A stretch of 64,000 nt of DNA from positions 16,907 through 80,906 of the forward strand of contig BDTD01000007.1 of assembly GCA_002897635.1 (NCBI GenBank), given 5' to 3'. Shown here one piece after another: positions 17,874-64,000 of the stretch; positions within the stretch are counted from its first letter, which is position 1; each line of letters starts with the position of its first letter. The position numbers and the translations under genes are program-made. Below the pieces are notes generated by a model that was given only the letters and a program-made list of their open reading frames with translations, was not told the origin of the DNA and did no database searches. Source of the DNA: a bacterium BMS3Abin11 (GTDB lineage Bacteria > Pseudomonadota > Gammaproteobacteria > BMS3Bbin11).

Positions 17874-17920
17874 AGGTATTTATTTATAACATCTCCAGTA
17901 TATGCTCCTGAAGTAAATCA

Positions 17921-18610
17921 CTATGGTAAATCAAACATCATTGCAACACTGTTCCTGGTAGCAGTAAACTCAACAATATCAACTTCTTTTAGAGTAATAC
18001 CATCACCTTCGTTCAATTGATCACCATTCACGCTGATGACACCAGAAACAATATGCACATATATCGTTCGCCCTGATCCAGGTGAATGTGAAGTGGATCG
18101 ATCCGCTTTCAAATGCATCTGATAGAGACAGGCATCCTGATGGATCAGGAAGGAGCCATCACGGGCATCGGGAGAAGCTATCAATTGCAGGCCTTCCCGG
18201 GTTTCAAACTGTTTTTGCTGGTAGCCGGGTTCGATACCCAGCACATTGGGCTGAATCCAGATTTGTAAAAACTCCAGTGGTTCGGTGCTTGAGGGATTAT
18301 ATTCACTGTGGGTAACACCTGTCCCTGCACTCATGAGCTGGAATTGACCCGCGTGTAATCTTACAATATGACCCATGCTGTCCTTATGTTCAATGGTTCC
18401 TTTTTTAACGTAACTGATAATCTCCATATCCTCGTGTGAGTGTGTCGCAAAACCCTTGCCGGGCGTAACCCTGTCATCATTGATTACGCGTAATACTGAG
18501 ATCCCCATGTGTTTGGGATCGTAATAATTCGCAAATGAAAATGTGTGACGAGTCTTTAACCAGCCGTGGTCAGCCGATCCACGCTCAACGTTGTGTCGAA
18601 TATCAATCAT
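17921..18610 (-). CDS. Pirin family protein (quercetin 2,3-dioxygenase-like bicupin)
   Basis: HPHRGFETVTY-type cupin motifs (HGWLKTRHTFSF, HSHEDMEIISYV). Start moved to the internal Met MIDIRH; the track ORF runs to 18643. Confidence 0.85.
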   Translation of the reverse strand: MIDIRHNVERGSADHGWLKTRHTFSFANYYDPKHMGISVLRVINDDRVTPGKGFATHSHEDMEIISYVKKGTIEHKDSMGHIVRLHAGQFQLMSAGTGVTHSEYNPSSTEPLEFLQIWIQPNVLGIEPGYQQKQFETREGLQLIASPDARDGSFLIHQDACLYQMHLKADRSTSHSPGSGRTIYVHIVSGVISVNGDQLNEGDGITLKEVDIVEFTATRNSVAMMFDLP

Positions 18611-18634
18611 GGTAGTCCTCCAGGTTGTATTGTT

Positions 18635-18676
18635 TAAGGGCACCTCTATTCATGAATTAATAGAGGTACCCTTAAA
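18635..18676. repeat. Solo family-1 palindrome: two terminal inverted repeats abutting, with no interior (TTAAGGGCACCTCTATTCATGAATTAATAGAGGTACCCTTAA)
   Basis: Same terminal inverted repeat as the family-1 elements. Located in the pirin / LysR divergent promoter region. Confidence 0.7.
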
Positions 18677-25023: not shown

Positions 25024-25188
25024 TGGGAACCTCTGATAAATTCTGGACGAAGTACATTAACGCCTAAAATATCCAGGTTTGAGGCGCAAATCGCACGTAA
25101 TAGCTAGCAATTGCGAAGGTTTTCAGCGAAAAAACTGGTTATTTTAGGCGTGAGATACGAGTTCACGAATTAATCAGAGGCTCCCTTA
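25024..25188. repeat. Family-1 MITE-like element, subfamily b (copy C), 165 bp; fills the purL-bamC spacer
   Basis: Terminal inverted repeats GGGAACCTCTGATAAATTCTGGA / GAATTAATCAGAGGCTCCC, core AATCGCACGTAATAGCTAGCAATTGCGAAGG, and inner inverted pair CGCCTAAAATA/TATTTTAGGCG. The right terminal inverted repeat ends in the bamC stop codon. Confidence 0.8.
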
Positions 25189-26373
25189 TCTTAACTGTTC
25201 ATAAAGCAATTTTACTATTTGTGTGACCACCTTATCGGGTGCTGCAGTACCGCTTTTTGTCAGCACATCAACCTTCGTTTGCTCGCCGTCCGCTGTAAGC
25301 AATATCTGATAGATATTATCTTCTGTAGTATCCTTATTTTTCCTGAACATTTTACTGAAGAATCCGGGTTTCTTATCATGCAGCTCAGGATTGGCATAAT
25401 CAACGAAATACATCCATTTACTCATATCCCTGTCTTCTACGTTGAAACCAACTCTGTCCAGTGTCTGGCCAACCCTGCGCCATGCTATATCAATGGTATT
25501 ATTGACTATCAATCTGGGCTGACCATTTTCAGTCTTGACGATGCTGGCCCGGTCTGCTGACTTATTTGCCTTTGCCAGACTCGTTGCCGTAGCAGCTTCA
25601 CTGGCACCCATTTTGATCATTAACAACGAGAGCATTTCAGCTTCAATGTTAGGATCAGGGGGTACAGCCTCCCACACAGTACTGACAGGATCCACGTTGT
25701 TATCACTAACCACCTTTTCTACCATACCTTTGTACGTTATATATATATCAGTGGTGCCCTTGATGCGGCCAGGTTCAATTCTGATAAGATATTTATCTCG
25801 ACTGCTGGTGGTGTAAATGGATCCTAAATATTTGTTTAGAAATTTTTGTGATCCACGCAAGACACCGGATGCATAGTTGTTAGCCCAGGTCGTTTCCAGT
25901 ATCCCGGCATCCTTGTCCTCTCGCTCCAGTGCCAAACCAGAGGACAGAATGAAATCCCGCACATCCGACCATGTCGCAGAATAAGATTGATATACAACCA
26001 GCCAGCGCTGAGAACCGGCACGCTCTATGTACATCTTCGGCCCATTATCAGATCTTTTCAATGATGTTGGTTTAGCAACAGGCTTCGTCGTTCCGCTAAC
26101 ATCCGAGACAGTATTTTTTACCGTTGCAGATGAGGCTTTCTGTCCACTGGCAGCCGTAGCAGATTTTTGCTCATAAGCTGGGACACTGAGACTTTTGTCA
26201 GAGGCATCGGAACTGAGATCTGGGGGGATTTCCAGAGCTGAACGTTCTCTGCTTTCACGATAGTCCGTCAGCACTCTCTGTTTCGGCTCTTTATCCTTTT
26301 TTGACCAGCTGCAACCACTTGATAAGACAACTATAAAAGCAAGTAAAATGATTTTAGTAAAAGATTTTTTCAT
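25186..26373 (-). CDS. bamC: Outer membrane protein assembly factor BamC (NlpB lipoprotein)
   Basis: Lipobox LSSGC; position immediately downstream of dapA as in the E. coli dapA-bamC operon; pattern similarity to NlpB. Confidence 0.7.
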   Translation of the reverse strand: MKKSFTKIILLAFIVVLSSGCSWSKKDKEPKQRVLTDYRESRERSALEIPPDLSSDASDKSLSVPAYEQKSATAASGQKASSATVKNTVSDVSGTTKPVAKPTSLKRSDNGPKMYIERAGSQRWLVVYQSYSATWSDVRDFILSSGLALEREDKDAGILETTWANNYASGVLRGSQKFLNKYLGSIYTTSSRDKYLIRIEPGRIKGTTDIYITYKGMVEKVVSDNNVDPVSTVWEAVPPDPNIEAEMLSLLMIKMGASEAATATSLAKANKSADRASIVKTENGQPRLIVNNTIDIAWRRVGQTLDRVGFNVEDRDMSKWMYFVDYANPELHDKKPGFFSKMFRKNKDTTEDNIYQILLTADGEQTKVDVLTKSGTAAPDKVVTQIVKLLYEQLR

Positions 26374-31596: not shown

Positions 31597-31679
31597 CACC
31601 TCTATAGAGTCTTAAGGGTGCCCACTATTAATTCTGGATATGTCAAATTGATATTCATGAATTTATAGAGGTGCCCTCT
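31597..31679. repeat. Truncated family-1 element (copy D): terminal inverted repeats bracket a short 30 bp interior that lacks the core
   Basis: AAGGGTGCCCACTATTAATTCTGGATATG ... CATGAATTTATAGAGGTGCCCTC. Confidence 0.65.
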
Positions 31680-32553: not shown

Positions 32554-32571
32554 ATGGGCTTGAGTACCAGA

Positions 32572-34434: not shown

Positions 34435-34683
34435 GATTAGGCGACACTCAGCTTCTCTGTGCCTTGTTCACGGCAAGGCATCGGAACGCCACTGTAGCCA
34501 TTCTACAGTAAGTTTCGATAACGAAGTCCGTGAAATGGCACAGAGAAGCCCGTAGGGAGGATCCAAAATGATCCAGCTCTGCGTTACGACTCTTGATAAG
34601 GGAATAACCATTATCTGCGAGTCGTGTCTTAATCTGAATCATTTTGGGTCCTCTGAGTGTCGCCTAATCATGGTTCGGCTTAG
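34421..34683. mobile_element. 263 bp MITE-like element with perfect 31 bp terminal inverted repeats (CTAAGCCGAACCATGATTAGGCGACACTCAG), possibly with TA target-site duplication
   Basis: Left terminal inverted repeat at 34421-34451 and right at 34653-34683 are exact reverse complements. Inner inverted pair CTTCTCTGTGCC/GGCACAGAGAAG. Flanked by TA on both sides. No coding capacity. Confidence 0.75.
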
Positions 34684-34695
34684 TAAGTACTTTAT

Positions 34696-35475: not shown

Positions 35476-35625
35476 AATATTTTCAGGTAGTAAGGGTATC
35501 TCTATTTACTCATGAATAATCATATTGAATCCAGAACCTGTCATATCCAGAACTAATAAAAGCCCCCTGTTGTTTATAACAGGTCACTAAGTATAATGAA
35601 AAAAATTTAAAAACAAAGGAAAGCT

Positions 35626-36683: not shown

Positions 36684-37994
36684 ATGACCAGAAGCACCAC
36701 ACATCTAGCACCTAGAAAAGAACTTATTTCCTGGGCGATGTATGATTTTGCTAATTCTGGCTATACCACGGTTGTTTTAACCGCTATTTTTAGTGCCTAT
36801 TTCGTTGGCGTTATTGCCGCTACTACGGATGGCACTAGTAATGGCACAGGAACCTTGCTGTGGAGTATAACCATTGGTATTGCCAATATATTGATACTTA
36901 TTACAGCCCCTGTCCTTGGTGCGATTGCAGACTACTCCGCATCGAAAAAGAAGATGCTCGCCTATACCACCGCAGGTTGTATTGGGATGACGGCCCTGCT
37001 AGGATTTACTGGGCCGAACCAGCTTTTTCTCAGTATGTTTTTTCTGGCCGGCTCAGCTTTTTTGTTTGGTACGGGTGAGAATCTTATCGCTGCTTTTTTG
37101 CCAGAAATTGCCCCGCCAGATAAAGTCGGCAAAGTATCCGGCTTCAGTTGGGCACTCGGCTACATCGGTGGATTGTTTGTACTCACTGTGAGCCTGGCCT
37201 ATATCGAGGTGGTAAAACCACTGGGGCAGACAGCAGAACAATATGTCCCAGTCACTTTATGGATTACTGCCCTGGTCTTTGCCATCGCCTCAGCACCCAC
37301 ATTTCTCTTCCTGAAAGAAAGACAACAGGCTAGCCTGGATTCACCCTCCTCCATTTTCAGCTATACCCGAATCGGTTTTTCGAGACTGCGACAAACCCTG
37401 CAGCGCAGGCGCCAGTTTCGTGACCTGTTTCGTTTTCTTCTGGCATTGTGCATTTTTAGCAGCGGTGTCTATACCGTCATCGTTATCGCGGCCATCTATG
37501 CCCAGCAAGTCATGCACTTCTCCACCACAGAAAACATCGTCATGATTATGGTGGTTAATATCACCGCAGCAGTAGGCGCATTTGTCTTTGGCCTGTTTCA
37601 GGATCAACTGGGAGCCAAACGTACACTGGAACTGACATTACTTATATGGATACTCGCCATTGCTGTTGTATGGCAAGGTGATACAAAGACCCAATTCTGG
37701 ATTGCCGCCAATTTAATTGGTCTGGCCATGGGCTCCAGCCAGTCTGCCGGACGTGCCCTGGTGGCCCTGTTCGCTCCGGAAGGTCGCTCAGCAGAGTTTT
37801 TTGGCCTGTGGGGCCTGTCAATCAAACTGGCCGCCGTCATTGGTCCCATGAGCTATGGACTCATCGCCTGGTACAGCAACGGCGACCAGCGCCAGGCCAT
37901 TTTTTCCACACTTATGTTTTTTGTTGTAGGATTAATCGTCCTGTTTACTGTAAATGAAAAACGTGGGCGAGAAGCGGCTGTTGTTGGGGAGTAG
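36684..37994 (+). CDS. MFS transporter, UMF1/Atg22-like family
   Basis: 12 TM segments with a WAMYDFANSGYTTVV N-terminal signature. Confidence 0.8.
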   Translation: MTRSTTHLAPRKELISWAMYDFANSGYTTVVLTAIFSAYFVGVIAATTDGTSNGTGTLLWSITIGIANILILITAPVLGAIADYSASKKKMLAYTTAGCIGMTALLGFTGPNQLFLSMFFLAGSAFLFGTGENLIAAFLPEIAPPDKVGKVSGFSWALGYIGGLFVLTVSLAYIEVVKPLGQTAEQYVPVTLWITALVFAIASAPTFLFLKERQQASLDSPSSIFSYTRIGFSRLRQTLQRRRQFRDLFRFLLALCIFSSGVYTVIVIAAIYAQQVMHFSTTENIVMIMVVNITAAVGAFVFGLFQDQLGAKRTLELTLLIWILAIAVVWQGDTKTQFWIAANLIGLAMGSSQSAGRALVALFAPEGRSAEFFGLWGLSIKLAAVIGPMSYGLIAWYSNGDQRQAIFSTLMFFVVGLIVLFTVNEKRGREAAVVGE

Positions 37995-38260
37995 AAGTTC
38001 CAAGATCCAGGTTCCAAGTTCCAAGTTCCAAGTAAAGGTCAAAAGCTATTAACCACAGAGGACACGGAGGTACACAGAGGAAAAAATTCTACAGATTTAA
38101 TAAACATACTAAGCATCAGCGCTATCGCTTAGTTTCAGCTCATATCTGTGGCCGAAATATATAGCAACTGAAAACCTCTGTGCACCTCCGTGTCCTCTGT
38201 GGTAAATGCTTTTAGTCTTTAGATTTTAGCTTGGAACTTGGAACCTGGATCTTGGAACTC
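37995..38260. repeat. Composite repeat: an octamer array (GTTCCAAG x4.5), then a family-2 BIME-like element (29 bp CACAGAGGA arms flanking 94 bp), then a reverse octamer array (CTTGGAAC x4)
   Basis: ACCACAGAGGACACGGAGGTACACAGAGG at 38052-38080, and its reverse complement CCTCTGTGCACCTCCGTGTCCTCTGTGGT at 38175-38203. Confidence 0.85.
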
Positions 38261-38279
38261 TATCTTTTTAACCCCATAT
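38251..38279 (+). promoter_or_regulatory. Candidate sigma-32 (RpoH) heat-shock promoter for clpB: -35 CTTGGAA, 14 bp spacer, -10 CCCCATAT
   Basis: Matches the sigma-32 consensus CTTGAAA-N13-15-CCCCATNT. Sits 37 bp upstream of the clpB ATG. The -35 box is the last unit of the octamer array. Confidence 0.5.
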
Positions 38280-40895: not shown

Positions 40896-40956
40896 CTAAC
40901 TATTGATAAAAAAGCTATTAACCGCGGAGGGCACAGTGGCCCCGAGAAGTAAAAAT

Positions 40957-43508: not shown

Positions 43509-43672
43509 TAAGGAACCTCTGATTAATTCTGGACGAAGTAGATTGCGACTAAAATATTCAGGTTTAAGGCGCAAATCGCACGTAATAGCTAGCTATTGCG
43601 AAGGTTTGCAACGAAAAAACTGGATATTTTAGGCGTGAGATACGAGTCCACGAATTGATCAGAGGTTCCCTA
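43509..43672. repeat. Family-1 MITE-like element, subfamily b (copy E), 164 bp
   Basis: AAGGAACCTCTGATTAATTCTGGACGAAG ... core AATCGCACGTAATAGCTAGCTATTGCGAAGG ... CGAATTGATCAGAGGTTCCC. The right terminal inverted repeat AGAGGT sits 6 nt before the ATG of the next gene and acts as its Shine-Dalgarno sequence. Confidence 0.8.
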
Positions 43673-43674
43673 AC

Positions 43675-45282
43675 ATGACTAAACTCATCAATGCTCTGCT
43701 AAACCCGTCGGTCTACGACCATGCTGTAGATAAGATCGAACTCCTACAGACCCATATCTCATGGGTCATACTCACCGGAGACTTTGCCTATAAAATCAAG
43801 AAGCCAGTGAACTTTGGATTTCTCGACTTTTCATCTCTGGGAAAGCGCAGGCATTACTGTGAGGAAGAATTACGCCTCAATCGACGCCTTGCTCCACAAC
43901 TCTACCTGGATGTCATCACCATCACGGGCAGTGAAGAACTGCCTGCCATAAACGGTACTGGAAAGGTGCTGGAATATGCAGTAAAGATGCGGCAATTTCC
44001 GACAGAAAGCCTCCTTATCAACATGATTAATACCGGTGATCTTAGAGAAATCCACATGGACTGGCTGGCACATAGTATTGCCAGTTTCCATCATCAAACA
44101 GGTGTGGCAAAAGCTGGAGCTGAATTCGGTACATTAGCTGCCGTTGAAAAACCGGTAAAGGAAAACTTCCAACAGATTCGTCAACATATTCAGAATACAG
44201 AAATCCTGAAACAGCTGGATGCAATAGAGGGATGGTGTACTGATGTTTTCTTTAATCTGGAAACAGCATTTCGTAAACGCAAACAGGATGGTTTTATTCG
44301 CGAGTGCCACGGCGATTTACATCTTGGCAACATTATCCTGCTGCATGAAAAAATCATTCCTTTTGACTGTATCGAATTTAATGAAAATCTTCGCTGGATT
44401 GATGTCCTAAGTGAAATCGCGTTCCTTGTTATGGATCTGGAGGATCATCAGCGACCGGATCTTGGTAGACATTTTCTAAACAAATACCTTGAACTGACTG
44501 GGGACTATAGTAACCTCAATATATTTCAATATTACAAAGTTTATCGCGCTATGGTGCGTGCAAAAATTAATACCCTCCAACTAAAGCAGGAAGGAATGGC
44601 TCAATCTCAAATAAAAGCCATATATAAACAATGCAAAAACTACGTCAATCTGGGCAGTAGCTATATTATCGACCAGAAACCTGTGTTGATAATTATGCAT
44701 GGCTTCAGTGGTTCGGGTAAAACAACGGTTAGCCAATTTATTGTTGAAGCCTTGCCGGTAATACGAATTCGTTCTGATATTGAACGCAAACGTCTATATA
44801 AACTAAAGCCCACAGAAAAAAGCCTGTCTGGAATCAACAAAGGTGTCTATAATGATGAGGCATCCCGAAAAACATATAACCATCTTCGAAGACTCGCAGA
44901 AGATATTCTCCTTGCAGGCAAATCAGTGATTGTTGATGCTGCTTTTTTACAGGCCGAACAACGTAAACAATTCGCAGAACTTGCATCTATACACAATATG
45001 CCTTACCACATCATTGACTGCCATGCTGAACGTGGAATACTGGTACAACGTATTTCTGAAAGACAAATTTATGGCAACGATGCCTCGGAAGCATCACTGA
45101 AAGTTCTTTACAATCAGCAGGAAAATCATGACCCGCTAACGGATGAAGAACGGGCTATATCTTTCACTATAGGGAGTACTGAAGCCATGGCTATCAAAAC
45201 AGTGACTGACCATCTCGGTGCACTGATCCGCGGCCGTACCGTACCAGATAGTTTTCCCGACGAGAAAACCCCTTATCGTTAA
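43675..45282 (+). CDS. Bifunctional aminoglycoside-phosphotransferase-like kinase / AAA (zeta-toxin-like P-loop) protein
   Basis: N-terminal APH/choline-kinase fold with HGDLHLGNI (Brenner motif) and a C-terminal Walker A GFSGSGKTT. Confidence 0.7.
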   Translation: MTKLINALLNPSVYDHAVDKIELLQTHISWVILTGDFAYKIKKPVNFGFLDFSSLGKRRHYCEEELRLNRRLAPQLYLDVITITGSEELPAINGTGKVLEYAVKMRQFPTESLLINMINTGDLREIHMDWLAHSIASFHHQTGVAKAGAEFGTLAAVEKPVKENFQQIRQHIQNTEILKQLDAIEGWCTDVFFNLETAFRKRKQDGFIRECHGDLHLGNIILLHEKIIPFDCIEFNENLRWIDVLSEIAFLVMDLEDHQRPDLGRHFLNKYLELTGDYSNLNIFQYYKVYRAMVRAKINTLQLKQEGMAQSQIKAIYKQCKNYVNLGSSYIIDQKPVLIIMHGFSGSGKTTVSQFIVEALPVIRIRSDIERKRLYKLKPTEKSLSGINKGVYNDEASRKTYNHLRRLAEDILLAGKSVIVDAAFLQAEQRKQFAELASIHNMPYHIIDCHAERGILVQRISERQIYGNDASEASLKVLYNQQENHDPLTDEERAISFTIGSTEAMAIKTVTDHLGALIRGRTVPDSFPDEKTPYR

Positions 45283-45462: not shown

Positions 45463-46236
45463 TTATGTTTGTCCGGCGCCGGCCTGATGATCAAGCCAGA
45501 TCAGCGTCGCCATCCGACCACAGTCTCCCTGTCGACGATGCGAAAAAAAACGCTGCTGGTCAGTAAAAGTGCAGTAATTACCACCACTTACTTCAGTAAC
45601 CCCGGACATCAGCAAACGAAGACTCGCCAGTTTATAGATATCGACCAGCCATTTGCCTTTTTTGGTTGATTCTCTGCACCAGCCTTCCTGTGTTACGTTG
45701 TTATATTCCATCTTAGTGGAAAGCCGCGAAACAACTTCTTCGCCGACCTCAAATTTTTCAGGTCCAATGGCAGGGCCCAACCAGGCAAGAACGTCGTCAG
45801 CCGGGGAAAATTTCTTTACACCAGCTTCCAGGATGCCATCAGCCAGGCCACGCCAGCCAGTGTGAAGGGCTGCGACACGCAACCCCTTTCGGTCAGTCAA
45901 TAGTACGGGTAGACAATCAGCGGTCATCACTGCGCAGACTGTTTCAACCTTTGTCACAGTGCTGCCATCTGCTCTGTAGTCAGGCTCTGCCCGGTCAATA
46001 TCTACAATTCTGGTTGAGTGATACTGATCAAGCCAGTGTGGCTGGTTACGCAAACCCAATAATTGCTGAACCCGGCTACGATTCTGCATCACGGCCTGTT
46101 CGTCATCATGCACATGAGCGGCCAGGTTCATGCTGTAATAGTTTCCCCGGCTGACCCCACCATGACGGGTAGTACTCACAGCACGCACATGTGCTGGTGC
46201 CGGCCAGTCAGGTATCAACCAGTCATGAGGCGGCAT
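45463..46236 (-). CDS. pgeF: Purine nucleoside phosphorylase / polyphenol oxidase-like YfiH
   Basis: DUF152/laccase-domain motifs (ALHTGWRG, C...H). The rluD-pgeF neighbourhood is conserved as in E. coli. Confidence 0.85.
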   Translation of the reverse strand: MPPHDWLIPDWPAPAHVRAVSTTRHGGVSRGNYYSMNLAAHVHDDEQAVMQNRSRVQQLLGLRNQPHWLDQYHSTRIVDIDRAEPDYRADGSTVTKVETVCAVMTADCLPVLLTDRKGLRVAALHTGWRGLADGILEAGVKKFSPADDVLAWLGPAIGPEKFEVGEEVVSRLSTKMEYNNVTQEGWCRESTKKGKWLVDIYKLASLRLLMSGVTEVSGGNYCTFTDQQRFFSHRRQGDCGRMATLIWLDHQAGAGQT

Positions 46237-46247
46237 ATTGATCAGGA

Positions 46248-46419
46248 ATGCCCTTTAAGGGCGTCTCTATTAATTCTGGATAGATCAGATTGTATTCCAA
46301 CTCGTTCATATCAAGGCAAGGATCGCACGTAATAGCTAGCTATTGCGAAGATTCTTAACGCAGAGAGGGACGAGTTGGGATGGAAGATGAATATTCATGG
46401 ATTAATAGAGGCGCCCTTT
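46248..46419. repeat. Family-1 MITE-like element, subfamily a (copy F), 172 bp
   Basis: AAGGGCGTCTCTATTAATTCTGGATAG ... CATATCAAGGCAAGGATCGCACGTAATAGCTAGCTATTGCGAAGATTCTTAACGCAGAGAG ... CATGGATTAATAGAGGCGCCCTT. The right terminal inverted repeat encodes the last 8 codons and the stop of rluD. The element's internal ATG opens a 28-codon ORF that overlaps the pgeF start. Confidence 0.85.
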
Positions 46420-47399
46420 TTGTCATCTCTAAGTACATCTACCAGCAACTGCATATCTGCTGGCATAGGCACCGTCCAGCTCAGCAATTCACCACTGACA
46501 GGGTGATGCAAAGCCAGTGTTTCAGCATGTAGAGCCTGTCTCCGGAAACCACGCAGGGTATTTAGCAGCTGTCCGGAAGATGCCGGCGGCACATGCAGGC
46601 GTTTTCCGTAGACTGGATCGCCGGCGATAGGATGACCCTGCCAGTTCATGTGGACACGGATTTGATGTGTACGGCCGGTTTCAAGTGTCACCCTGACCAG
46701 GGTATGGGCACGGAACTTCTCTTCTACCCGGTAATGCGTCACGGCCGGTTTGCCACGGTTGTTTACGGCCATTTTTGTACGTTCACGGCTATGCCGGCCA
46801 ATCGGGGCGTCAATCGTTCCGCCTGCCACAATCTGAGAAACGATCACCGCCAGATATTCACGTCTAACCTGCTTCTCCTGTATTGCTTCAACAAGGGCCT
46901 TTACCGCCTTTTCATTACGCGCTATTACCAGCAGGCCCGTCGTTTCTTTGTCAATTCGATGTACAATTCCGGCCCGTGGCAGCACCGCCAGCGATTCGTC
47001 GAAGTGCAACAGGGCATTTAGCAGTGTGCCATCAGGGTTACCCGTTCCCGGATGTACGACCAGACCCGCCGGCTTGTTGATGACAAGAATATCTTCATCC
47101 TGGTAGACCATATCCAGAGGAATATCCTGAGCCTGAGAGTCAGTCGCTACCGGTGCAGGCACATGAATCACTACAGCCTGCCCTTCCCTTACCTTCGTTT
47201 TTTGCCCTTCAGCTTTCCCGTCCAGGGTCACCCGCCCATCTTTTATCCAGTGCTGAATTGCCGAACGGGAATATTGGCCGAACAGGGTCGCTAATGCTTT
47301 ATCGAGACGAAAACCGTTACATAATTCAGGGATTATCCCCTGTAACAGGGTTTCTTCACATTGATGAAGCACTAGATTCGGGTTATCCTTCGGTTCCAT
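46395..47399 (-). CDS. rluD: 23S rRNA pseudouridine(1911/1915/1917) synthase RluD
   Basis: S4 domain plus RluA-family catalytic motif HRIDKETTGLLVIA. Confidence 0.92.
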   Translation of the reverse strand: MEPKDNPNLVLHQCEETLLQGIIPELCNGFRLDKALATLFGQYSRSAIQHWIKDGRVTLDGKAEGQKTKVREGQAVVIHVPAPVATDSQAQDIPLDMVYQDEDILVINKPAGLVVHPGTGNPDGTLLNALLHFDESLAVLPRAGIVHRIDKETTGLLVIARNEKAVKALVEAIQEKQVRREYLAVIVSQIVAGGTIDAPIGRHSRERTKMAVNNRGKPAVTHYRVEEKFRAHTLVRVTLETGRTHQIRVHMNWQGHPIAGDPVYGKRLHVPPASSGQLLNTLRGFRRQALHAETLALHHPVSGELLSWTVPMPADMQLLVDVLRDDKKGASINP

Positions 47400-48237: not shown

Positions 48238-48936
48238 CTAACGTAGTGATTTGTCTATAAATTGTGCTTCAGGACATTTCACCATAACAGCAGCTACAAA
48301 CTTTTCATCAGCCTGCCACTGCCTGACTGACCAGTCACTATCGTTAGCACACCCAAGTTTATCCCTGATTTTAAGATCACCCTTCTCTGATAGCAGGCAT
48401 TCAAACCGATCCAGTCCAGCCAGTAGTTTCATTCCACGCGCCTTAACAGCGGCCTCTTTCAATACCCACATTCTGTAAAACAGGCTGTCATTATCACTCG
48501 AATCAATCAGAGAGCTTTCTTCTTCAGTAAAAAAACGGCGAGCTAGTGCTGCATAATCACGGTTAGCCTGAATTTGTTCAATATCGATACCTATATCACT
48601 CTCAGCTGCCACAGACAGCAGGAAGCAATGACCGCTATGGCTGAGGTTAAAACGCAACTTTGGTGGCCCAGTTGCCAGCTCTGGTTTGCCATTTTCACCC
48701 GGGATGAAAGTGAGTTCATTCGCCGGACATCTAACATAGCTTTCCAGGATTAACCGTAGAGCGGAACGAGTCCGGAGAAAGCGCGACCTGGCTTTATGGT
48801 GACTTAAGCCGGCAAAGCGGGTTATTTCATCGTCCGATAGAAGCTCCGGTAAATCCAGTGCTGGGTCATCCAGTGAAAGACTCCAGATATGAACTGTACC
48901 GTTGGCTGGCAAAGCCTGTTCACTAATGCGTATCAT
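48238..48936 (-). CDS. 4'-phosphopantetheinyl transferase (Sfp/EntD type)
   Basis: FNLSHSG ... GIDIE ... WVLKEAAVKA motifs. Confidence 0.8.
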   Translation of the reverse strand: MIRISEQALPANGTVHIWSLSLDDPALDLPELLSDDEITRFAGLSHHKARSRFLRTRSALRLILESYVRCPANELTFIPGENGKPELATGPPKLRFNLSHSGHCFLLSVAAESDIGIDIEQIQANRDYAALARRFFTEEESSLIDSSDNDSLFYRMWVLKEAAVKARGMKLLAGLDRFECLLSEKGDLKIRDKLGCANDSDWSVRQWQADEKFVAAVMVKCPEAQFIDKSLR

Positions 48937-50611
48937 TCGTTAACACGTGCCGCATATAAGCTGAAGTAATGGGATAGCGCCGATCTCTGCCGAAAGCTCT
49001 TTTTGTTATTCGCACTCCGGGCGCAGCCTGTTTGCGTTTATATTCATTCAGATCTACCAGGTAAAGAACCTTTCGCACCGTGTTGCGATCAAAGCCTTTC
49101 GCCACGATTTCTTCAAGTCCACAATCATCTTCTATATACATTTCAAGAATAGCATCAAGAATTTCATATACCGGTAGTGAATCTTCATCCTTCTGATCAT
49201 CAGCCAGTTCAGCACTCGGCGGCCGGTCTATCACGCGCTGCGGGATTACCTGCGACTGACTATTACGCCAGTTTGCCAGCTCATAGACCAGCATCTTCGG
49301 TACATCTTTGATCACTGCATACCCCCCCGCCATGTCACCATAAAGGGTGGCATAACCAACTGCCATTTCACTTTTATTGCCGGTGGTCAACACAATGCGA
49401 CCCTGTTTGTTGGATATGGCCATCAATATAATTCCTCGACAGCGAGCCTGAATGTTCTCTTCGGTGGTATCGACTGCTGCTGCGGCAAAAGTCTCCTTAA
49501 GACCGTCAAGAAATGCCATAAACATCGGTTCGATAGTGATGGTCTGGTAATGCACACCGAGTACCCCGGCCTGCTCCCTGGCATCCTCAATACTCATGGA
49601 CTGGGTATAGCGCGAAGGCATAAGTACAGCCTTAACATTCTCCGCGCCTAGTGCATCACTGGCAATGACCAGTGTCAGTGCGGAATCGACACCGCCCGAC
49701 AGTCCGATTACCGCCCCCTTGAAGCCATTTTTTAATGCATAGTCACGCACACCAAGCACAAGTGCCCGGTATACATTTTCAATTCGGGGTAAATCAGGAG
49801 CAAGTACTGACGGCTCTGGCTGTAAACCTTTATCAGCGCAGGTAATTTCAATCAACGAAAGATCTTCTAAAAACACCGGTGCCTGCAGAACACGTGCACC
49901 GCTGGCATCAACAACAAAAGAACCACCATCAAAAACCAGTTCATCCTGACCGCCAACCATATTGACATAGACCACAGGCACAGAATTTAATCGTGCCTGC
50001 TCTGCAACCACTGTTATACGTTCAGCCCGCTTGTCCATATGATATGGTGACGCGTTGAGATTAAGAATAAGCTTCGCACCGGCCTGAACTGCCTGCCTGG
50101 CAGGGCCATCCTGCCAGATGTCCTCACAAATGGTGACACCGATCTTTCCTGCATATGTTTCCACTATGCAAGGGCTGCCACCCGCAGTGAAATACCGTTT
50201 TTCATCGAAAACGCCGAAATTAGGCAGGCTCTGTTTGTCATAACGCGCTATCTGCACACCATCTTTAATTATTACGGCAGAGTTATACAAACAGTCTTCT
50301 TCCTGCATCGGACAACCGATAATAGCCGTGATGCCATGCACATGTCTGCAAAGCTCATCCAGCACTTTACGGGTATCAGCGATAAAGCCATGACGCAACA
50401 ATAGATCTTCAGGTGGATAGCCCGTCAGGTTAAGCTCAGGGAAAAGAATAATATCTGCACCCAGTTCATCCCTGGCCCGCACCACCCACTGCAGTATTTT
50501 GTCAGCATTCCCCTGCAGATCTCCAACCAGACAGTCATGCTGAGCGAGGGCAATTTTCAAGGACGCCCCGGTTGATACTGGATGATCAGATTGTGATTCA
50601 AAACCAGTCAT
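48923..50611 (-). CDS. nadE: Glutamine-dependent NAD+ synthetase (nitrilase-like domain plus NAD synthase domain)
   Basis: N-terminal CN-hydrolase domain and C-terminal SGGVDS PP-loop. The first roughly 17 codons of the track ORF lie inside repeat copy G. The true start may be the TTG at 50559, giving (M)KIALAQ. Confidence 0.9.
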   Translation of the reverse strand: MTGFESQSDHPVSTGASLKIALAQHDCLVGDLQGNADKILQWVVRARDELGADIILFPELNLTGYPPEDLLLRHGFIADTRKVLDELCRHVHGITAIIGCPMQEEDCLYNSAVIIKDGVQIARYDKQSLPNFGVFDEKRYFTAGGSPCIVETYAGKIGVTICEDIWQDGPARQAVQAGAKLILNLNASPYHMDKRAERITVVAEQARLNSVPVVYVNMVGGQDELVFDGGSFVVDASGARVLQAPVFLEDLSLIEITCADKGLQPEPSVLAPDLPRIENVYRALVLGVRDYALKNGFKGAVIGLSGGVDSALTLVIASDALGAENVKAVLMPSRYTQSMSIEDAREQAGVLGVHYQTITIEPMFMAFLDGLKETFAAAAVDTTEENIQARCRGIILMAISNKQGRIVLTTGNKSEMAVGYATLYGDMAGGYAVIKDVPKMLVYELANWRNSQSQVIPQRVIDRPPSAELADDQKDEDSLPVYEILDAILEMYIEDDCGLEEIVAKGFDRNTVRKVLYLVDLNEYKRKQAAPGVRITKRAFGRDRRYPITSAYMRHVLTNDTH

Positions 50612-50773
50612 ATCAAGACAAGGATCGCACGGCCGCTCATTGACATCCTGTCACTGCGGCACTTGTACATCCCTGTACGTCGTAATAGCTGGCTATTGCG
50701 AAGATTCTTAACGCAGAGATGGCTGGTTTTGAATTCAAGATGATTATTCATGTATTAATCGGGGCGCCCTTCA
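50558..50773. repeat. Family-1 MITE-like element, subfamily a (copy G), with a degenerate left terminal inverted repeat and a roughly 50 bp insertion inside the core
   Basis: CTGGATGATCAGATTGTGATTCAAAACCAGTCATATCAAGACAAGGATCGCACG-[insertion]-TCGTAATAGCTGGCTATTGCGAAGATTCTTAACGCAGAGATGG ... CATGTATTAATCGGGGCGCCCTT. Confidence 0.75.
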
Positions 50774-50880
50774 AGTTTGTTTCATCATTTATCAGTGATT
50801 TAAAATAACAATCAGATGATACACTGCTGGTCAGCTTTTCTCAGCAGAGAAGATAGGGGTGAATTTTATTTTAGGATCAA

Positions 50881-51012
50881 AAGCTATACACCACAGAGGT
50901 CACAGAGGAAAGAAAAATATTTGGCTGCAAACCATGCACAACAACCTTAATCCTCTTTCTGCTTCATACTGGAAGTGATTCATGCATTCCAATTTTAACC
51001 TCTGTGTCCTTT
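50881..51012. repeat. Family-2 BIME-like element, shorter arms (ACCACAGAGGTCACAGAGG ... CCTCTGTGTCC), interior about 90 bp
   Basis: Preceded by the AAAAGCTATACACC leader shared with the copy at 38041. Directly follows family-1 copy G. Confidence 0.7.
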
Positions 51013-51266
51013 ATGGCGAAAAATGATGTTAAAAAATGCAAACTGAAGTCCACAATTCTCTGCTCGATATTTCACCTGACGAATGGGACACGTTGAACCA
51101 TGATAACAACCCTTCCATCAGTTATGCCTTTCTCAGTACCCTCGAGGAATCAGCGAGTACAGGTGGGAGAAAAGCGCATGTTACTCATTATCAACAAATA
51201 TTAAATAAATATAGCCCTTTTCGAAATGACACCAAAAATGACTAACCAGTTGATATACTGTTACTC

Positions 51267-51959
51267 ATGCAATTAATTACCGCCGACACACCTGAAACAC
51301 AGTTTCCATCACCAAATTCCGCATCAGAGGAAGGTCTGGTCGCTGTCGGTGGAAAAATCACCACTAAACGGGTACTAAGTGCCTATCGACAGGGGATTTT
51401 CCCCTGGTACAGTGAAGATCAGCCGGTATTATGGTGGTCACCCGAGCCACGCGCCGTTCTCTATCCTGATGAGATAAAGATCTCTCGCAGTCTTAAAAAA
51501 ACGCTGCGCCACAACAATTTCAGTATCACGGCCGACACAGCGTTCAGTGAAGTGGTAAATGCCTGTGCCGGCCCGCGCACACAGTCGCCAACAGGCGGCA
51601 CATGGATCACCGCTGAGATGATGGATACCTATAACCAGCTTCACCAGCTAGGCTACGGGCACTCTATCGAGGTCTGGAACGAAGAAAAGCTTGCTGGTGG
51701 TTTGTATGGCCTGTCACTGGGCTCCGCCTTTTTTGGTGAATCTATGTTCAGTCATCAGTCGAACGCCTCCAAGCTTGCGCTGGTTTATCTGGCAAAATTT
51801 TCTAAATCCAGAGGCATAGATTTCATCGACTGCCAACTGCCTACCGACCACCTGGCAAGCATGGGGGCCGTCAATCTTAGCCGCAAAGAATACCTGAGGA
51901 TTCTCGAAACTGCGCTGAAACATCAGGATCACATAAAATACTGGCAGCTTGATGGCTGA
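51267..51959 (+). CDS. aat: Leucyl/phenylalanyl-tRNA-protein transferase
   Basis: GIFPWYSEDQPVLWWSPEPR signature. Confidence 0.92.
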   Translation: MQLITADTPETQFPSPNSASEEGLVAVGGKITTKRVLSAYRQGIFPWYSEDQPVLWWSPEPRAVLYPDEIKISRSLKKTLRHNNFSITADTAFSEVVNACAGPRTQSPTGGTWITAEMMDTYNQLHQLGYGHSIEVWNEEKLAGGLYGLSLGSAFFGESMFSHQSNASKLALVYLAKFSKSRGIDFIDCQLPTDHLASMGAVNLSRKEYLRILETALKHQDHIKYWQLDG

Positions 51960-51970
51960 TTGCCAATATA

Positions 51971-52134
51971 AAGGGCACCTCTATTAATTCATGGATATTC
52001 ATCTCACATCCAAAATCGTCCATCTCTGCGTTAAGAATCTTCGCAATAGCTGGCTATTACGTGCGATCCTTGCCTTGATATGAACGATTTTGGATGCAAT
52101 CTAATCTATCCATAATTAATAGAGGTACCCTTAA
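51971..52134. repeat. Family-1 MITE-like element, subfamily a (copy H), reverse orientation; fills the aat-bpt spacer
   Basis: AAGGGCACCTCTATTAATTCATGG ... TCTCTGCGTTAAGAATCTTCGCAATAGCTGGCTATTACGTGCGATCCTTGCCTTGATATG ... CCATAATTAATAGAGGTACCCTT. Confidence 0.85.
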
Positions 52135-52140
52135 GCCTAT

Positions 52141-52848
52141 ATGTCCGTTTCTGATCTCAGTTTTTTCCTTTCTACTACACATGAATGCAGCTATCTGCCG
52201 GATCGTGAGGCCGCATCACTGGTCGCAGACCCTACGGTTAAGCTGGATACTGCAAACTATTCGGAATTAATTCAGCTCGGTTTCCGGCGCAGCGGTGGAA
52301 TGGCCTATAGACCTCACTGCAGGGCATGCCAGGCCTGCGTAGCAATCCGTATCCCTGTTAGCCAATTTCATCCTTCCCGTGGACAAAAACGTATCTGGAA
52401 AAAGAACAATGATCTGGAATTCACCAGCCTGCCGTTCGCCTTCCACGAAGAGCACTATCAACTGTATCAACGATACCAGTCTGCCAGACATTACGGCGGC
52501 AGCATGGATATCGACGACCGTGAAAAATATACAAACTTCTTTACCGCTAGCGGACTTGAAACCCGCCTGCTTGAATTTCGCAGTGCCGGAGAACTGCTTT
52601 GTGTTGCAGCAATCGACTGGTTGCCGGCAGGCCTGTCCTCCATGTACACCTTTTTTGATCCTGAACAGAACAACCGAGGACTAGGTGTCTACGCTATCCT
52701 CTGGCAAATTATGAAAGCACAGGAAATCGGCCTGCCACATGTCTATCTGGGTTACTGGATAAAAGAATGCGACAAAATGTCCTACAAAACCCGCTACCGG
52801 CCGTATGAACTGTTTCAGCAACAACGATGGCATCGGGGCGTGGACTAA
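52141..52848 (+). CDS. bpt: Aspartate/glutamate leucyltransferase (arginyltransferase-family Bpt)
   Basis: ATE_N/ATE_C family with CxxC (CRACQAC) and the conserved aat-bpt-infA arrangement. Confidence 0.9.
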   Translation: MSVSDLSFFLSTTHECSYLPDREAASLVADPTVKLDTANYSELIQLGFRRSGGMAYRPHCRACQACVAIRIPVSQFHPSRGQKRIWKKNNDLEFTSLPFAFHEEHYQLYQRYQSARHYGGSMDIDDREKYTNFFTASGLETRLLEFRSAGELLCVAAIDWLPAGLSSMYTFFDPEQNNRGLGVYAILWQIMKAQEIGLPHVYLGYWIKECDKMSYKTRYRPYELFQQQRWHRGVD

Positions 52849-53091
52849 GGATGAAAGGGGAAAGGGGAAAGGGGAAAGTTCCAAGTTCCAAGATCCAAGC
52901 AAATTCAAAGCCTCATATCACTGAGGTACATGGTTTTGACTTGGAACTTGGAACTTGGAACTTGGATCTTGGAACTTGGAACTTGGATCTTGGAACCTGG
53001 AACCTGGAACCTGGAACCTGGAACTTGGAACTTGGATCTTGGAACTTGGATCTTGGAACTACAGCACCCCGTGTCCTCTGTGGTTAAAATG
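52849..53091. repeat. Tandem repeat block: (GAAAGGGG)x3, (GTTCCAAG)x3, a 40 bp spacer, (CTTGGAAC-like octamer) x about 15, then half of a family-2 terminal inverted repeat (CCCCGTGTCCTCTGTGG)
   Basis: Period-8 array at 52940-53060 with CTTGGAAC/CTTGGATC/CTGGAACC variants. All overlapping six-frame ORFs are low-complexity LGTWNLDLGTWNL-type artefacts. Confidence 0.9.
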
Positions 53092-53229
53092 TACATGGAT
53101 TCATTAAAATTGCTTTTAAATACCAAATTATCGCCTAAAATTGAATATGAGCGTATTCAGACCTTTACCCCTGACTCCTGTTGGTGCATCATACGCGCCC
53201 ATATTTTCATTTAAAGAGACCTGGTTGCT

Positions 53230-56052: not shown

Positions 56053-56096
56053 CCTTGTCTCCATTATTTTCAACTGTGAAAGTCAAAAGACTTTTT

Positions 56097-56243
56097 ACCA
56101 CAGAGGACACGGAGGACACAGAGGTTTTTTATTATTGTGTACCCGTTGCTTCGTTAAATTTGGTGTCAGACGAGGACTTCGATGGTTGTTTATTACTTCT
56201 AGAAGATTTTCCTTTCCTCTGTGTCCTCTGTGTCCTCTGTGGT
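56097..56243. repeat. Family-2 BIME-like element in the radC / coaBC divergent intergenic region
   Basis: ACCACAGAGGACACGGAGGACACAGAGG at 56097-56124 and CCTCTGTGTCCTCTGTGTCCTCTGTGGT at about 56216-56243, bracketing 90 bp. Flanking leader and trailer motifs (GTCAAAAG..., ...TTTAGATTTTGATC) are shared with the copy at 38035-38230. Confidence 0.85.
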
Positions 56244-56314
56244 GAAAACCTTTAGATTTTGATCTTTCACTCATTTTATCGAAGTACAACCCCTTTCTGC
56301 GCTAAAATAACGCC

Positions 56315-62348: not shown

Positions 62349-63419
62349 TCAGGAACCTAGCCACGCAAGAATGTTTTCAGTAATCTGTCTTTCCATTTCT
62401 GCAAGGTTATTTATACTACCAGTAACCACACCACCGGATGCCTGCACCTTCCCGTTCTGCTCAAAAATTCCCCATGTCAGTCTTACATGCTCTGCATTTT
62501 GCTGGAAACTGAAAACAAGCCTGAAGGCAGAACTACTGCCATACTTTTTGTCAGCATTTGTGTCGGGTTTTGATGCACCCTTAACAGGAAGAAGATTTAC
62601 ACCAGCTATCGAATTTACGCTCGTTTGTATTCGCCTGGCCATGTCGCTGAGTTCTTTGCCGAATCCACCACTGGAAAAATCCCTGATCTCAGTAACTTCA
62701 ATATACCGAGTCTCAATTTCAGGCTTACTACTTGCGAACATTAAAAACAGTATTGTGGCTACCACCAACAATGGAATTTCAACAACAGGAGATATAATAG
62801 TTACATTTAAGTTGTCCAGATATTCGGTCTTCAGATACTCAAGTAAAAATCCCTGACGCCTGAGGAAAGCCTGTTTCTCTTCATATAGATAAAATACTGG
62901 CACTGTATCGGATAAAAAGCCCAGATCATGCCTGCCCAGTGGATAGGCATATACTGGAAAGTCCGGAGTAATTTCATCAATAATGGTTTTGCTGACGCAT
63001 AGCCCATCTGCACGACCTAAAGATTGAAGACAGGTAGCAGCTGCCAGTGAAAGCTGTTGCTGGCTTTCTTTTTCTCCCTGTTTACTGGAGGAGTGAATAC
63101 CGATTCGCGCAGTTATGCCTGGTTCTTCGGATGAAAGATTCCATGCATTGAGGGCTTCCTGTATGGCAAAACCAGCCTTTACTGCAGATTTGCAGGTTCT
63201 GAAGCTTGCTGAAATCGCATCACCGGTAAATTCAATCCCAAAACCAACTGCTTTTTCGATGATGGGTACCAGTATGGACTGGAAGGTTTCATAAAGATCA
63301 ACCCCTTTACGCTGATCTTTCTGCATGATCAGCGAAGAGCCGACTATATCAGCTACCATATAGGTTAAGGGCATCTCTATTAGTTCTGGATAGTTCAGGT
63401 TTGATTCAAAAGTTGTCAT
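62349..63419 (-). CDS. Membrane-anchored class III nucleotidyl cyclase-like protein, subunit A: metal-binding Asp pair present, Asn/Arg motif absent
   Basis: VADIVGSSLI (first metal Asp), EFTGDAISASF (second metal Asp) and ARIGIHSS. The region homologous to GxxVNxASRL reads GLCVSKTII, so Asn and Arg are lost. One TM segment and a C-terminal domain paralogous to subunit B. The first 20 codons of the track ORF derive from repeat copy I; the likely true start is the Met at 63359 (MVADIVGSS...). Confidence 0.6.
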   Translation of the reverse strand: MTTFESNLNYPELIEMPLTYMVADIVGSSLIMQKDQRKGVDLYETFQSILVPIIEKAVGFGIEFTGDAISASFRTCKSAVKAGFAIQEALNAWNLSSEEPGITARIGIHSSSKQGEKESQQQLSLAAATCLQSLGRADGLCVSKTIIDEITPDFPVYAYPLGRHDLGFLSDTVPVFYLYEEKQAFLRRQGFLLEYLKTEYLDNLNVTIISPVVEIPLLVVATILFLMFASSKPEIETRYIEVTEIRDFSSGGFGKELSDMARRIQTSVNSIAGVNLLPVKGASKPDTNADKKYGSSSAFRLVFSFQQNAEHVRLTWGIFEQNGKVQASGGVVTGSINNLAEMERQITENILAWLGS

Positions 63420-63528
63420 ATCAAGGCAAGGATCGCACGTAATAGCTAGTTATTGCGAAGATTCTTAACGCAGAGATGGCAGCTTTTGGATTGAACATGA
63501 GTATTCATGAATTAATAGAGGTGCCCTT
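63366..63528. repeat. Family-1 MITE-like element, subfamily a (copy I), 163 bp; the best-preserved copy, fills the parC-cyclase spacer
   Basis: AAGGGCATCTCTATTAGTTCTGGATAG ... CATATCAAGGCAAGGATCGCACGTAATAGCTAGTTATTGCGAAGATTCTTAACGCAGAGATGG ... CATGAATTAATAGAGGTGCCCTT. Confidence 0.9.
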
Positions 63529-63541
63529 GAGGGCGCAGTTG

Positions 63542-64000
63542 TCATTTCCTTTCAATGATAATTTTATCCACCAACCGGTAACCTTTCGGTAGCAATCGTC
63601 CACGTTGTGCACGGGCACCCCAATAGTCATCCATCTCAGCAGACTTCAGGCGACGGTATCGCTTGCCAGCATAGACCAGTAGTTTCTGACCATTCTTGAA
63701 TACCATCGCAGCTGCCAGTTTTTCTTCACCCGTCTCAAATTTCTTTGTCGGAATGTTAATCAGCTTAACGCCTTTACCGCGTGCCATAACCGGTAAGTCT
63801 TCGATGCTGTATACCAGTAAATGCCCTGTTGAACCCGCCAGGGCTAGCCAGTCGTTCACGATATCGCCAACTTGTACCGGCTGCAATATATCGGCACCCT
63901 TTGTCAGTTTAAGCACCACCTTGCCCTTACGGTTTTTACTTTGTAGGTCACCGAGACGCGTGACAAAACCATAGCCTGCGCTGGTAGAAAGCAGGAAATA
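63542..64000 (-). CDS. parC: Type IIA topoisomerase A-subunit C-terminal beta-pinwheel domain, probably ParC (topoisomerase IV subunit A). The 3' end of the gene is in the window; the 5' end runs past the window edge.
   Basis: GKGVKLI...blade-like repeats. The short C-terminal tail after the last blade fits ParC better than GyrA. Confidence 0.5.
   Translation of the reverse strand, partial: YFLLSTSAGYGFVTRLGDLQSKNRKGKVVLKLTKGADILQPVQVGDIVNDWLALAGSTGHLLVYSIEDLPVMARGKGVKLINIPTKKFETGEEKLAAAMVFKNGQKLLVYAGKRYRRLKSAEMDDYWGARAQRGRLLPKGYRLVDKIIIERK

Follow-up and report, generated by a model that had tools for sequence, protein, structure and literature searches.

Mobile hairpin repeats appear to have severed nadE and a cyclase gene from their ancestral starts in the gammaproteobacterium BMS3Abin11

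Bacterium BMS3Abin11 (Gammaproteobacteria; BMS3Bbin11) carried copies of a palindromic DNA repeat, here called the family-1 repeat, along a stretch of 64,000 nucleotides (nt) of contig BDTD01000007.1 (assembly GCA_002897635.1, positions 16,907 to 80,906 of the forward strand), referred to below as the window. Two of them, copies G and I, adjoined the genes of a glutamine-dependent NAD+ synthetase (nadE) and a class III cyclase-like protein (cyclase A), and both proteins as called began with an MTxFES segment. Most likely, insertion of a MITE (miniature inverted-repeat transposable element) beheaded both genes, MTxFES being the translated left arm of the repeat and the start of each gene now lying within or adjoining it; outward-facing signals in the repeat and re-initiation of translation may account for their continued expression. 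A hidden Markov model (HMM) of the family identified six full and three partial copies in the window:

63369..63526, plus strand: repeat copy I, core GGGCATC...GGTGCCC, 184.8 bits in nhmmer (family HMM match 63368-63527)
50559..50771, plus strand: repeat copy G, 213 nt, with a nested 49-nt insert at about 50632-50680; an orthologous copy is present in L071, an Arenicellales metagenome-assembled genome (MAG)
46257..46418, plus strand: repeat copy F, between rluD and pgeF
51971..52132, minus strand: repeat copy H, between aat and bpt
43510..43672, plus strand: subfamily-b copy, ending 4 nt short of the ATG that opens gene 43675..45282 (...CAGAGGTTCCC / TAAC ATG)
25025..25187, plus strand: subfamily-b copy, overlapping the stop of open reading frame (ORF) 25186..26373
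31616..31677, plus strand: partial or degenerate copy (nhmmer, family HMM)
34561-34649 and 35493-35544, minus strand: partial or degenerate copies (nhmmer, family HMM)

The repeat was an imperfect palindrome of about 162 nt (GGGCRCCTCTATTAAT...apex CGTAATAGCTAGCTATTGCG...ATTAATAGAGGYGCCC), ranging from 158 to 165 nt, or 213 nt with the nested insert, and lacked conserved coding capacity. Its terminal inverted repeats (GGGCRCCTCTATTAAT... and ...ATTAATAGAGGYGCCC) both read outward as ...AGAGGT(G/T)CCC, each containing a GAGG that resembles a Shine-Dalgarno (SD) sequence. Other genomes were scanned for an exact pattern, a 23-nt apex motif, with one genome per species, which returned at least 120 loci; family-wide counts rest on about 100 full-length copies from about 50 genomes among the matches listed. 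Hosts among these matches were almost all uncultured or symbiotic Gammaproteobacteria (Sedimenticola, Ca. Endoriftia, Escarpia and Lamellibrachia symbionts, Thiodiazotropha, Thiotrichaceae and Arenicellales), and the repeat is spread across many marine, mostly sulfur-oxidising members of this class. RNAalifold folded 95 non-identical copies into a single extended hairpin, in which compensatory double changes affected 49 of the 61 pairs. The two strands were not equivalent, as mismatches in an arm-against-arm alignment were G.U on the model (plus) strand in 620 cases against 314 on the other strand, a bias seen per copy in 95/95 copies by a structure-based count and in 84 versus 2 copies (7 ties) by an unbiased arm-alignment count. 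In copy I, predicted folding energies were -96.2 kcal/mol (z -9.7) for the plus strand and -52.4 kcal/mol (z -2.9) for the minus strand, the latter, weaker hairpin strand being the sense strand of parC and cyclase A. Between co-directional genes the weak strand was the one in the mRNA for 29 copies versus 14, and it was so for all four subfamily-a copies of the window.

An earlier, sequence-only reading of the window had described an in-frame ATG in every subfamily-a copy (F, G, H and I), fused to cyclase A and NadE in two of them, and all four frames are as described. In copy I, the ATG at 63419..63417 (minus strand) opens MTTFESNLNYPELIEMPLTY-MVADIVGSS... and runs on into the ORF of 356 amino acids (aa) at 62349..63419; in copy G, the ATG at 50611 opens MTGFESQSDHPVSTGAS-LKIALAQ... 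and continues into the 562-aa nadE ORF at 48923..50611. The 28-codon frame of copy F (46224-46309; MNELEYNLIYPELIETPLKGIPDQYAAS, then a stop at 46226-46224) overlaps the pgeF ATG at 46236, and the 11-codon frame of copy H (52080-52115; MNDFGCNLIYP, then a stop at 52113-52115) ends 25 nt before the bpt ATG (52141). The likeness of the four frames is not due to chance, because the subfamily-a copies are all homologous to one another as repeat DNA (nhmmer E = 1e-55 to 1e-57). The shared MTxFES N-terminus was likewise correctly attributed to the repeat and not to homology between NadE and cyclase A, as element-free relatives of both proteins lack it. Public assemblies of the organism contain gene calls of exactly 562 aa and 356 aa. 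The opposite arm of copy I carries a mirror-image outward ATG (MAAFGLNMSIHELIEVPL, 63476..63592, plus strand), which the sequence-only reading did not mention.

At the cyclase A locus, the features that bear on the insertion are:

62349..63419, minus strand: cyclase A ORF as called, class III cyclase-like, 356 aa, residues 1-18 encoded by the repeat
63417..63419, minus strand: repeat-borne ATG, Met1 of cyclase A, kept in L133 and L143; SD context -1.7 kcal/mol
63372..63374, minus strand: second in-frame ATG, Met16, in the terminal repeat (GAG ATG CCC); GTG in the family consensus, also ATG in L133
63357..63359, minus strand: Met21, the start proposed by the sequence-only reading; first Met after the repeat, in strand beta-1; CTG in L133
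63543..63545, minus strand: ancestral cyclase A ATG, overlapping the parC stop (AAATGA) and opening a 26-codon remnant ORF (63465..63545) that ends in the apex
63365..63368: TTAA target-site duplication of copy I, with the second copy at 63527-63530 (TTGA on the plus strand, i.e. TCAA; one mismatch)

The copy I site was empty, with a single TTAA, in three relatives: L134 (with the same gene arrangement), L135 (ATGACAACTGCGCCC-TTAA-CCTACATGGTG) and L142 (ATGAAAACTGCGCCA-TTAA-CC...). The filled site of the window reads ...GCGCCC-TCAA-(repeat)-TTAA-CCTAT.... Element-free cyclase A orthologs begin MTTAPLTYMVADIV (variants MTAAPSLIYMVADIV, MTTPGLTYIVADIV and MTTASSMTYLVADIV), and the ATGA overlap of their start with the parC stop was also found in L134, L135, L136 and L142. 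When 63369-63526 and one copy of the target duplication were removed in silico, MTTAPSTYMVADIVGSS / MTTAPSTYMVADIV was restored in frame (MTTAPS-TYMVADIVGSS). The position of Met21 was occupied by I or L in the orthologs P0131 and P0136. Four element-free orthologs (P0122, P0124, P0126 and P0129, from L135, L142 and relatives) have been called as 335-aa proteins beginning MVADI.... Since the ATG that overlaps the parC stop gives MTTAPLTYMVADI..., these calls are too short, the opposite of the error that had been suspected in the window. In L136 (3001-3045) the I site reads TTAAGGGCACCCTTGA and the N-terminus of cyclase A contains GGCTTAAGGGCACCCTTGACC (MTAVSGLRAPLTF...); this looks like an excision footprint, made up of two terminal stubs and TTAA/TTGA, that added codons in frame (MTAVSGLRAPLTFMVADIV).

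A comparable set of features was found at nadE:

48923..50611, minus strand: nadE ORF as called, glutamine-dependent NAD+ synthetase, 562 aa
50609..50611, minus strand: repeat-borne ATG, Met1 of NadE as called, kept and in frame in L071
50558..50560, minus strand: TTG at the junction of repeat and flank, formerly codon Leu5 and now a candidate start, with a repeat-derived GGGG before it; position 5 of the PRK13981 (NCBIfam) profile aligns here
50771..50788, minus strand: decayed ancestral nadE start, ATG ATG AAA CAA AC(-) T TGA, now MMKQT with its stop at the base of the hairpin
50816..50844, minus strand: CTGAGA-17-TATCAT, a promoter-like site within a block that is conserved whether or not a genome has the repeat

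The sequence-only reading had suggested a comparison with NadE from relatives that lack the element, and such homologs (78-89% identity) begin MKQSLKIALAQHD, MTQSIKIALAQHD or MMKQSL... (the MKQSLKIALAQ type), without MTxFES. The copy G site was empty in L138 and L139 (ATG AAA CAA AGC TTG AAA ATT), and both in the window and in L071, which is about 86% identical at the nucleotide level to window positions 49341-52851, the copy is bordered by TTGAA on both sides. Just upstream of copy G the coding strand reads ATGATGAAACAAAC-TTGAA/GGGCGCC..., with ATGATGAAACAAAC at 50788-50775 and the ancestral ATGs at 50788 and 50785; the corresponding remnant in L071 is ATGAATAAAG--TTGAA. These remnants suffered different frame-breaking losses (1 nt and 2 nt) in the window and in L071, which fits decay after insertion. 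For the same reason, translational bypassing from the ancestral ATG was considered and rejected. As the promoter-like block upstream of copy G is conserved, the nadE mRNA should contain the whole repeat.

Taken with the ancestral ATGs upstream of the repeats, the empty-site relatives place both insertions inside codon 5-6, such that the genes were cut from their own starts. On this comparative evidence, copies G and I beheaded nadE and cyclase A, and the insertion of copy I also broke the ATGA overlap of cyclase A with parC. A third copy was polymorphic as well: copy H is missing from the orthologous site of L071, where the gap between aat and bpt is 13 nt and the bpt ATG is unchanged. Its target duplication was not clean. 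L023 was examined as another orthologous aat-bpt site and rejected, as it is not orthologous. Given that orthologous sites differ in whether they contain copy H, I or G, and given the target duplications, we filed the family as a MITE; judged by these sites, the family-1 repeat is a mobile, non-coding hairpin element with a 4-5-bp TTAA-like target duplication. A scan of all copies for excisions that restore an ORF was too noisy to give the length of the target duplication or the rate of insertion within genes.

An alternative that we consider unlikely sees the repeat chiefly as a structured RNA or DNA element with a function, such as a regulatory hairpin or small RNA, and not as a selfish transposon. 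The compensatory changes along the whole stem and the bias of G.U wobbles to one strand (620 versus 314) would fit such a role, as would an apex sequence conserved across bacterial families, although the apex motif was required by the genome scan and its conservation is partly due to ascertainment. The same role could be read from copy I at the orthologous site of L133 (1-178), which is 95-96% identical to window 63351-63538, set against a synonymous divergence (dS) of 1.45 in the adjoining cyclase A (about 72% nucleotide identity). Identity changes sharply at the end of that repeat, however, and the L133 contig begins 10 nt from it, so that the near-identity could reflect constraint, recent transfer or a chimeric contig. 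Copy G was no better conserved than its gene, at 82% identity to the L071 copy versus 86% for nadE. Presence/absence polymorphism with target duplications also speaks for a mobile element, and copies were found in all four gene-orientation contexts. A scan of the window at Rfam 15 gathering thresholds gave zero matches, an E-value scan around copy I gave a chance miRNA as its sole match (E = 2.8), and a consensus scan of copies I and G found no sigma-70-like promoter site inside them.

Both genes have remained under purifying selection since they acquired the repeat. Between the window and L071, nadE showed a dS of 0.49 and a nonsynonymous divergence (dN) of 0.068, and between the window and L133, cyclase A showed a dS of 1.45 and a dN of 0.21; dN/dS was about 0.14 for both. 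A start in or adjoining the repeat must therefore be in use. The earlier suspicion that the called starts are wrong thus holds in part: the extensions are indeed repeat-encoded, but a start within or next to the repeat is needed, and the called ATGs remain candidates for it. It is very improbable that the insertions inactivated the genes and left nadE and cyclase A as pseudogenes whose ORFs are relics. Such inactivation would agree with the loss of the ancestral start codons, with the frame-breaking decay of the upstream nadE remnant in two species and with fast evolution of cyclase A, whose ratio of nonsynonymous to synonymous polymorphism (pN/pS) was 0.55 against a close relative, but in that close pair the paralog cycB and neighbouring genes gave similar values. 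Moreover, each ORF is intact in two diverged repeat-bearing species, dN/dS is low after insertion, and no second nadE was found within the window. NAD synthetase is normally essential. The relative L143, at 97-99% identity to the window, was too close for testing constraint. Synonymous divergence between the window and L143 varied five-fold among neighbouring genes (0.036-0.20), which suggests a recombination mosaic.

To evaluate where repeats lie relative to starts, we collected 116 repeat ends with an outward ORF of at least 100 codons within 300 nt. The outward start lay 0-11 nt past the repeat core in 28 of the 116 (an ATG in 19 of the 28), a count obtained without a formal null model and possibly inflated by start picking. 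Several of the start-adjacent ORFs had textbook N-termini (MKGIILAGGSGTRL, MAKNLLIVESPAK and MTKAFRAGFIAILGR). The GAGG of the terminal repeat stood 6-15 nt before many start codons (15 nt in the case of bpt). Within the window, gene 43675 and bpt show this start-adjacent arrangement, and their repeat-derived SD sequences (-7.0 and -7.2 kcal/mol) rank among its strongest. Far-side flanks of start-adjacent copies were often ...CTAA or TTAA, i.e. the stop of the upstream gene, and native SD remnants were not enriched there.

How the insertions came to be tolerated is a matter of inference. The element would target T(T)AA, and the insertions that persist would be mostly those between closely spaced stop and start codons or at the extreme 5' ends of genes, where a substitute SD from the terminal repeat and, in subfamily a, the ATG of each arm may make them tolerable. 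Copies would be oriented with the weaker hairpin strand in the mRNA. Remnant ORFs may keep their own initiation signals, with the cyclase remnant still coupled to parC, and ribosomes translating these remnants (MMKQT and a stop; 26 codons) could reach the base of the weak hairpin in nadE or cross its 5' arm in cyclase A. Opening of the hairpin might then free the 3' arm and the junction, with their candidate starts, for re-initiation. A more far-reaching proposal, which we regard as possible but doubtful, is that the MITE is self-rescuing, its outward SD and ATG signals and its weak-hairpin orientation letting beheaded genes, including the essential nadE, re-initiate at a start supplied by the repeat. 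If this holds, the near-identity of copy I in L133 despite a dS of 1.45 would reflect selection on a new 5' control region.

Candidate starts are ATG 63419, ATG 63374 or ATG 63359 for cyclase A and ATG 50611 or TTG 50560 for nadE. The sequence-only reading had favoured the TTG (given as 50559, although the codon lies at 50560..50558) and the Met at 63359 as the true starts, in which case the extensions would be annotation artefacts and the repeat ATG unused. We take this to be a real possibility, though we lean away from it, since neither codon is an ancestral start: the TTG is the former Leu5 codon, and Met 63359 an internal residue of strand beta-1. In the repeat-bearing L133, Met21 is CTG and the ATGs of Met1 and Met16 are both kept. 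For each gene, the two repeat-bearing species have kept the repeat ATG along with an open frame, and the nadE ATG 50611, the only ATG available, is in frame without indel or stop in L071. TTG is also rare as a start. Although the repeat ATGs have a poor SD context, the genome in general makes weak use of SD sequences (median -2.9 kcal/mol over 42 ORFs), and such scores therefore neither decide the matter nor exclude these ATGs.

Several points nonetheless weigh against the beheading account as we have set it out, in addition to the possible inflation of the start-adjacent count and the purely conjectural opening of the hairpin. The repeat ATGs score only -1.7 kcal/mol and lie inside the stem, and TTG 50560, with its repeat-derived GGGG, is at least as good a candidate (GGGG-N5-TTG, -5.0 kcal/mol versus -1.7 for ATG 50611). 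It also sits where many copies abut a real start codon, in the geometry of a repeat GAGG, a few nucleotides and a start that recurs at many copies. NadE family profiles begin at called residues 17-19, and in a cyclase clade of 44% identity (L140) the sole available start is at the Met21 position, exactly at MVADI. In an AlphaFold2 model of cyclase A, beta-1 comprises residues 20-23 and residues 1-18 are predicted to be disordered (predicted local distance difference test, pLDDT, below 50); with such low N-terminal confidence the model did not tell Met1, Met16 and Met21 apart. The 16 extension codons of nadE differ between the window and L071 by 5 nonsynonymous and 0 synonymous changes, compared with 53/84 in the gene body (Fisher p = 0.01), showing no protein constraint, and the called extensions may be untranslated. 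As to mobility, a search for an autonomous insertion-sequence partner, by distant pairs of the terminal repeats, found none in the fetched loci, which were 8-kb pieces around copies. The presence of copy G also conflicts with the NadE tree, as L071 is closer to the element-free P0003 (91.4% identity) than to the window (86.9%), which requires precise excision, recombination or repeated insertion.

The repeat could instead have encoded a conserved short leader peptide (an upstream ORF) coupled to the downstream gene, as had been suggested, and the overlap of the copy F frame with the pgeF ATG, the stop of the copy H frame shortly before bpt, and small repeat-arm ORFs occasionally called as proteins in metagenomes would agree with this. 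We find it hardly credible. Among 102 full-length copies the left-arm start codon was ATG in only 16 and CTG in 55, the ATG being a subfamily trait, and the left-arm frame often meets a stop inside the repeat (copy H being one case, with the CCA TAA of the ...CCATAATTAAT variant) and shifts among subfamilies. Synonymous bias among copies, proposed earlier as a sign of translation, was absent, given the five-to-none nonsynonymous excess in the orthologous G copies. Their arm changes instead compensate each other in the hairpin (AAACC/GGTTT versus AAGGC/GCCTT), and the bpt ATG is unchanged in the relative without the repeat. The apparent conservation of the peptide is that of the nucleotides of a hairpin arm. 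Two protein searches for repeat-derived N-termini returned little: a 40-aa concatenated profile found two tiny ORFs, with a word index insensitive to short matches, and an exhaustive HMMER search of cluster representatives found a few stand-alone ORFs of 34-55 aa and unrelated repetitive proteins, any fusions being hidden behind representatives at 50% identity.

Repeats that extend the 5' ends of genes are on record (PMC10969869, PMC3184786). It is not unusual for MITE ORFs to be fused in frame to genomic ORFs, Rickettsia palindromic elements (RPEs) being the extreme case (PMC10969869), and Neisseria REP2 and Borrelia IR sequences supply downstream genes with a promoter, ribosome-binding site and ATG (PMC3184786). 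The family-1 repeat resembles the Correia elements of Neisseria and the enterobacterial ERIC/IRU elements, MITEs whose co-transcribed copies form RNA hairpins and which are likewise imperfect palindromes of 100-170 nt with terminal inverted repeats, present in multiple copies at gene boundaries, polymorphic in presence, flanked by a short target duplication and asymmetric between strands such that orientation matters (PMC3184786, PMC10969869). It differs from Correia and ERIC in the outward GAGG of its terminal repeats, in the outward ATGs of one subfamily and in its hosts, which are marine sulfur oxidisers and tubeworm and clam symbionts. No sequence similarity to them was found, and the target duplication is TTAA/TTGAA-like here and TA there, the details on ERIC reportedly going back to De Gregorio et al. 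2005. REP2 has a promoter, lacks terminal inverted repeats and is not known to move, whereas the repeat described here is a full-length palindrome with target duplications and no promoter-like site in copies I and G. Like RPE, BOX, RUP and BRE it is a palindromic repeat within a protein-coding gene that contributes a peptide segment; RPE, however, is read through as an internal in-frame insert, whereas here the ancestral frames stop after 5 (nadE) or 26 (cyclase A) codons, and the repeat therefore replaces the N-terminus and the start signals. REP and REPIN sequences are hairpins of 20-40 nt, often in inverted pairs and associated with RAYT, in contrast to the single hairpin of about 160 nt with ends of the terminal-inverted-repeat type and a target duplication seen here (a RAYT gene was not searched for). 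In the 35S RNA of cauliflower mosaic virus, ribosome shunting is a eukaryotic 40S mechanism in which a short ORF ends at a long hairpin and the main start lies at its far base. The geometry at nadE and cyclase A (short ORF, hairpin, main start beyond) resembles both this shunt and translational coupling, by analogy only.

The family is not a sequence member of any of the known systems compared; it works like them and is a new family of a known kind. Neither the exact core sequence nor MITEs from these hosts turned up in the literature searched, and as far as we found the family is undescribed so far. Also of note is how abundant it is among environmentally important sulfur oxidisers and symbionts of animals (Endoriftia, Escarpia and Lamellibrachia symbionts, Thiodiazotropha, Sedimenticola). 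Two database proteins, the 562-aa NadE and the 356-aa cyclase, bear repeat-encoded N-termini, and start calls near the repeat are unreliable in both directions, for which the proper reference is the empty-site ortholog. The nadE insertion would be a clear natural case of a MITE severing the start codon of a normally essential gene, and beheaded genes here appear to have survived long (dS 0.5-1.5) with a replacement start, providing a testable system for how mobile hairpins supply translation signals.

Other observations concern the repeat copies themselves. The last eight codons and the stop of rluD, a pseudouridine synthase gene (46395..47399, minus strand), lie inside copy F (window 46395-46418), so the repeat can also supply a C-terminus and stop. 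An insert of 48-49 nt occurs at one apex position, between CGCACG and TCGTAATAGC, in copy G (50632-50680), in its L071 ortholog (about 2921-2969) and in an unrelated copy (L054:5726-5772). The insert forms a separate hairpin in which changes compensate each other (GCCGC/GCGGC versus ACCGT/ACGGT), and represents a long-loop variant or else a nested mini-element. The 267 nt at window 34419-34685 form an element whose terminal inverted repeats match perfectly over 33 nt and which has a 91% identical copy in an unrelated MAG (L041:1765-2031); as its interior matches family-1 model positions 39-126 (24.7 bits), a core module is common to both repeat families. A segment of about 268 nt (window 17608-17875) is 88.8% identical to L086:6125-6389 from another MAG, outside long ORF matches, and is probably another mobile repeat. 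At 18644-18665, the 22 nt that directly precede the GTG start of ORF 17921..18643 (ctctattaattcatgaatagag) form a sequence that resembles the terminal region of the family-1 repeat, though the family HMM gave no match. Tandem arrays of a 7-nt unit (CTTGGAA/CCTGGAA; GGACTAA-like) were found at 52925-53073, 37986-38045, 38201-38272 and 32561-32613 / 32729-32781, some of them as inverted pairs bordering short intergenic stretches. A second short repeat family (AAAAGCTATTAACCACAGAGGACACGGAGG) occurs at 38041-38087, 40910-40956, 50879-50925 and 56086-56132, with inverted partners at 38185-38220, 53066-53101 and 56225-56260. Members of this family are often neighbours of the heptamer arrays, and one of them is found upstream of the nadE promoter block, with related sequences at the equivalent place in L138 and L139.

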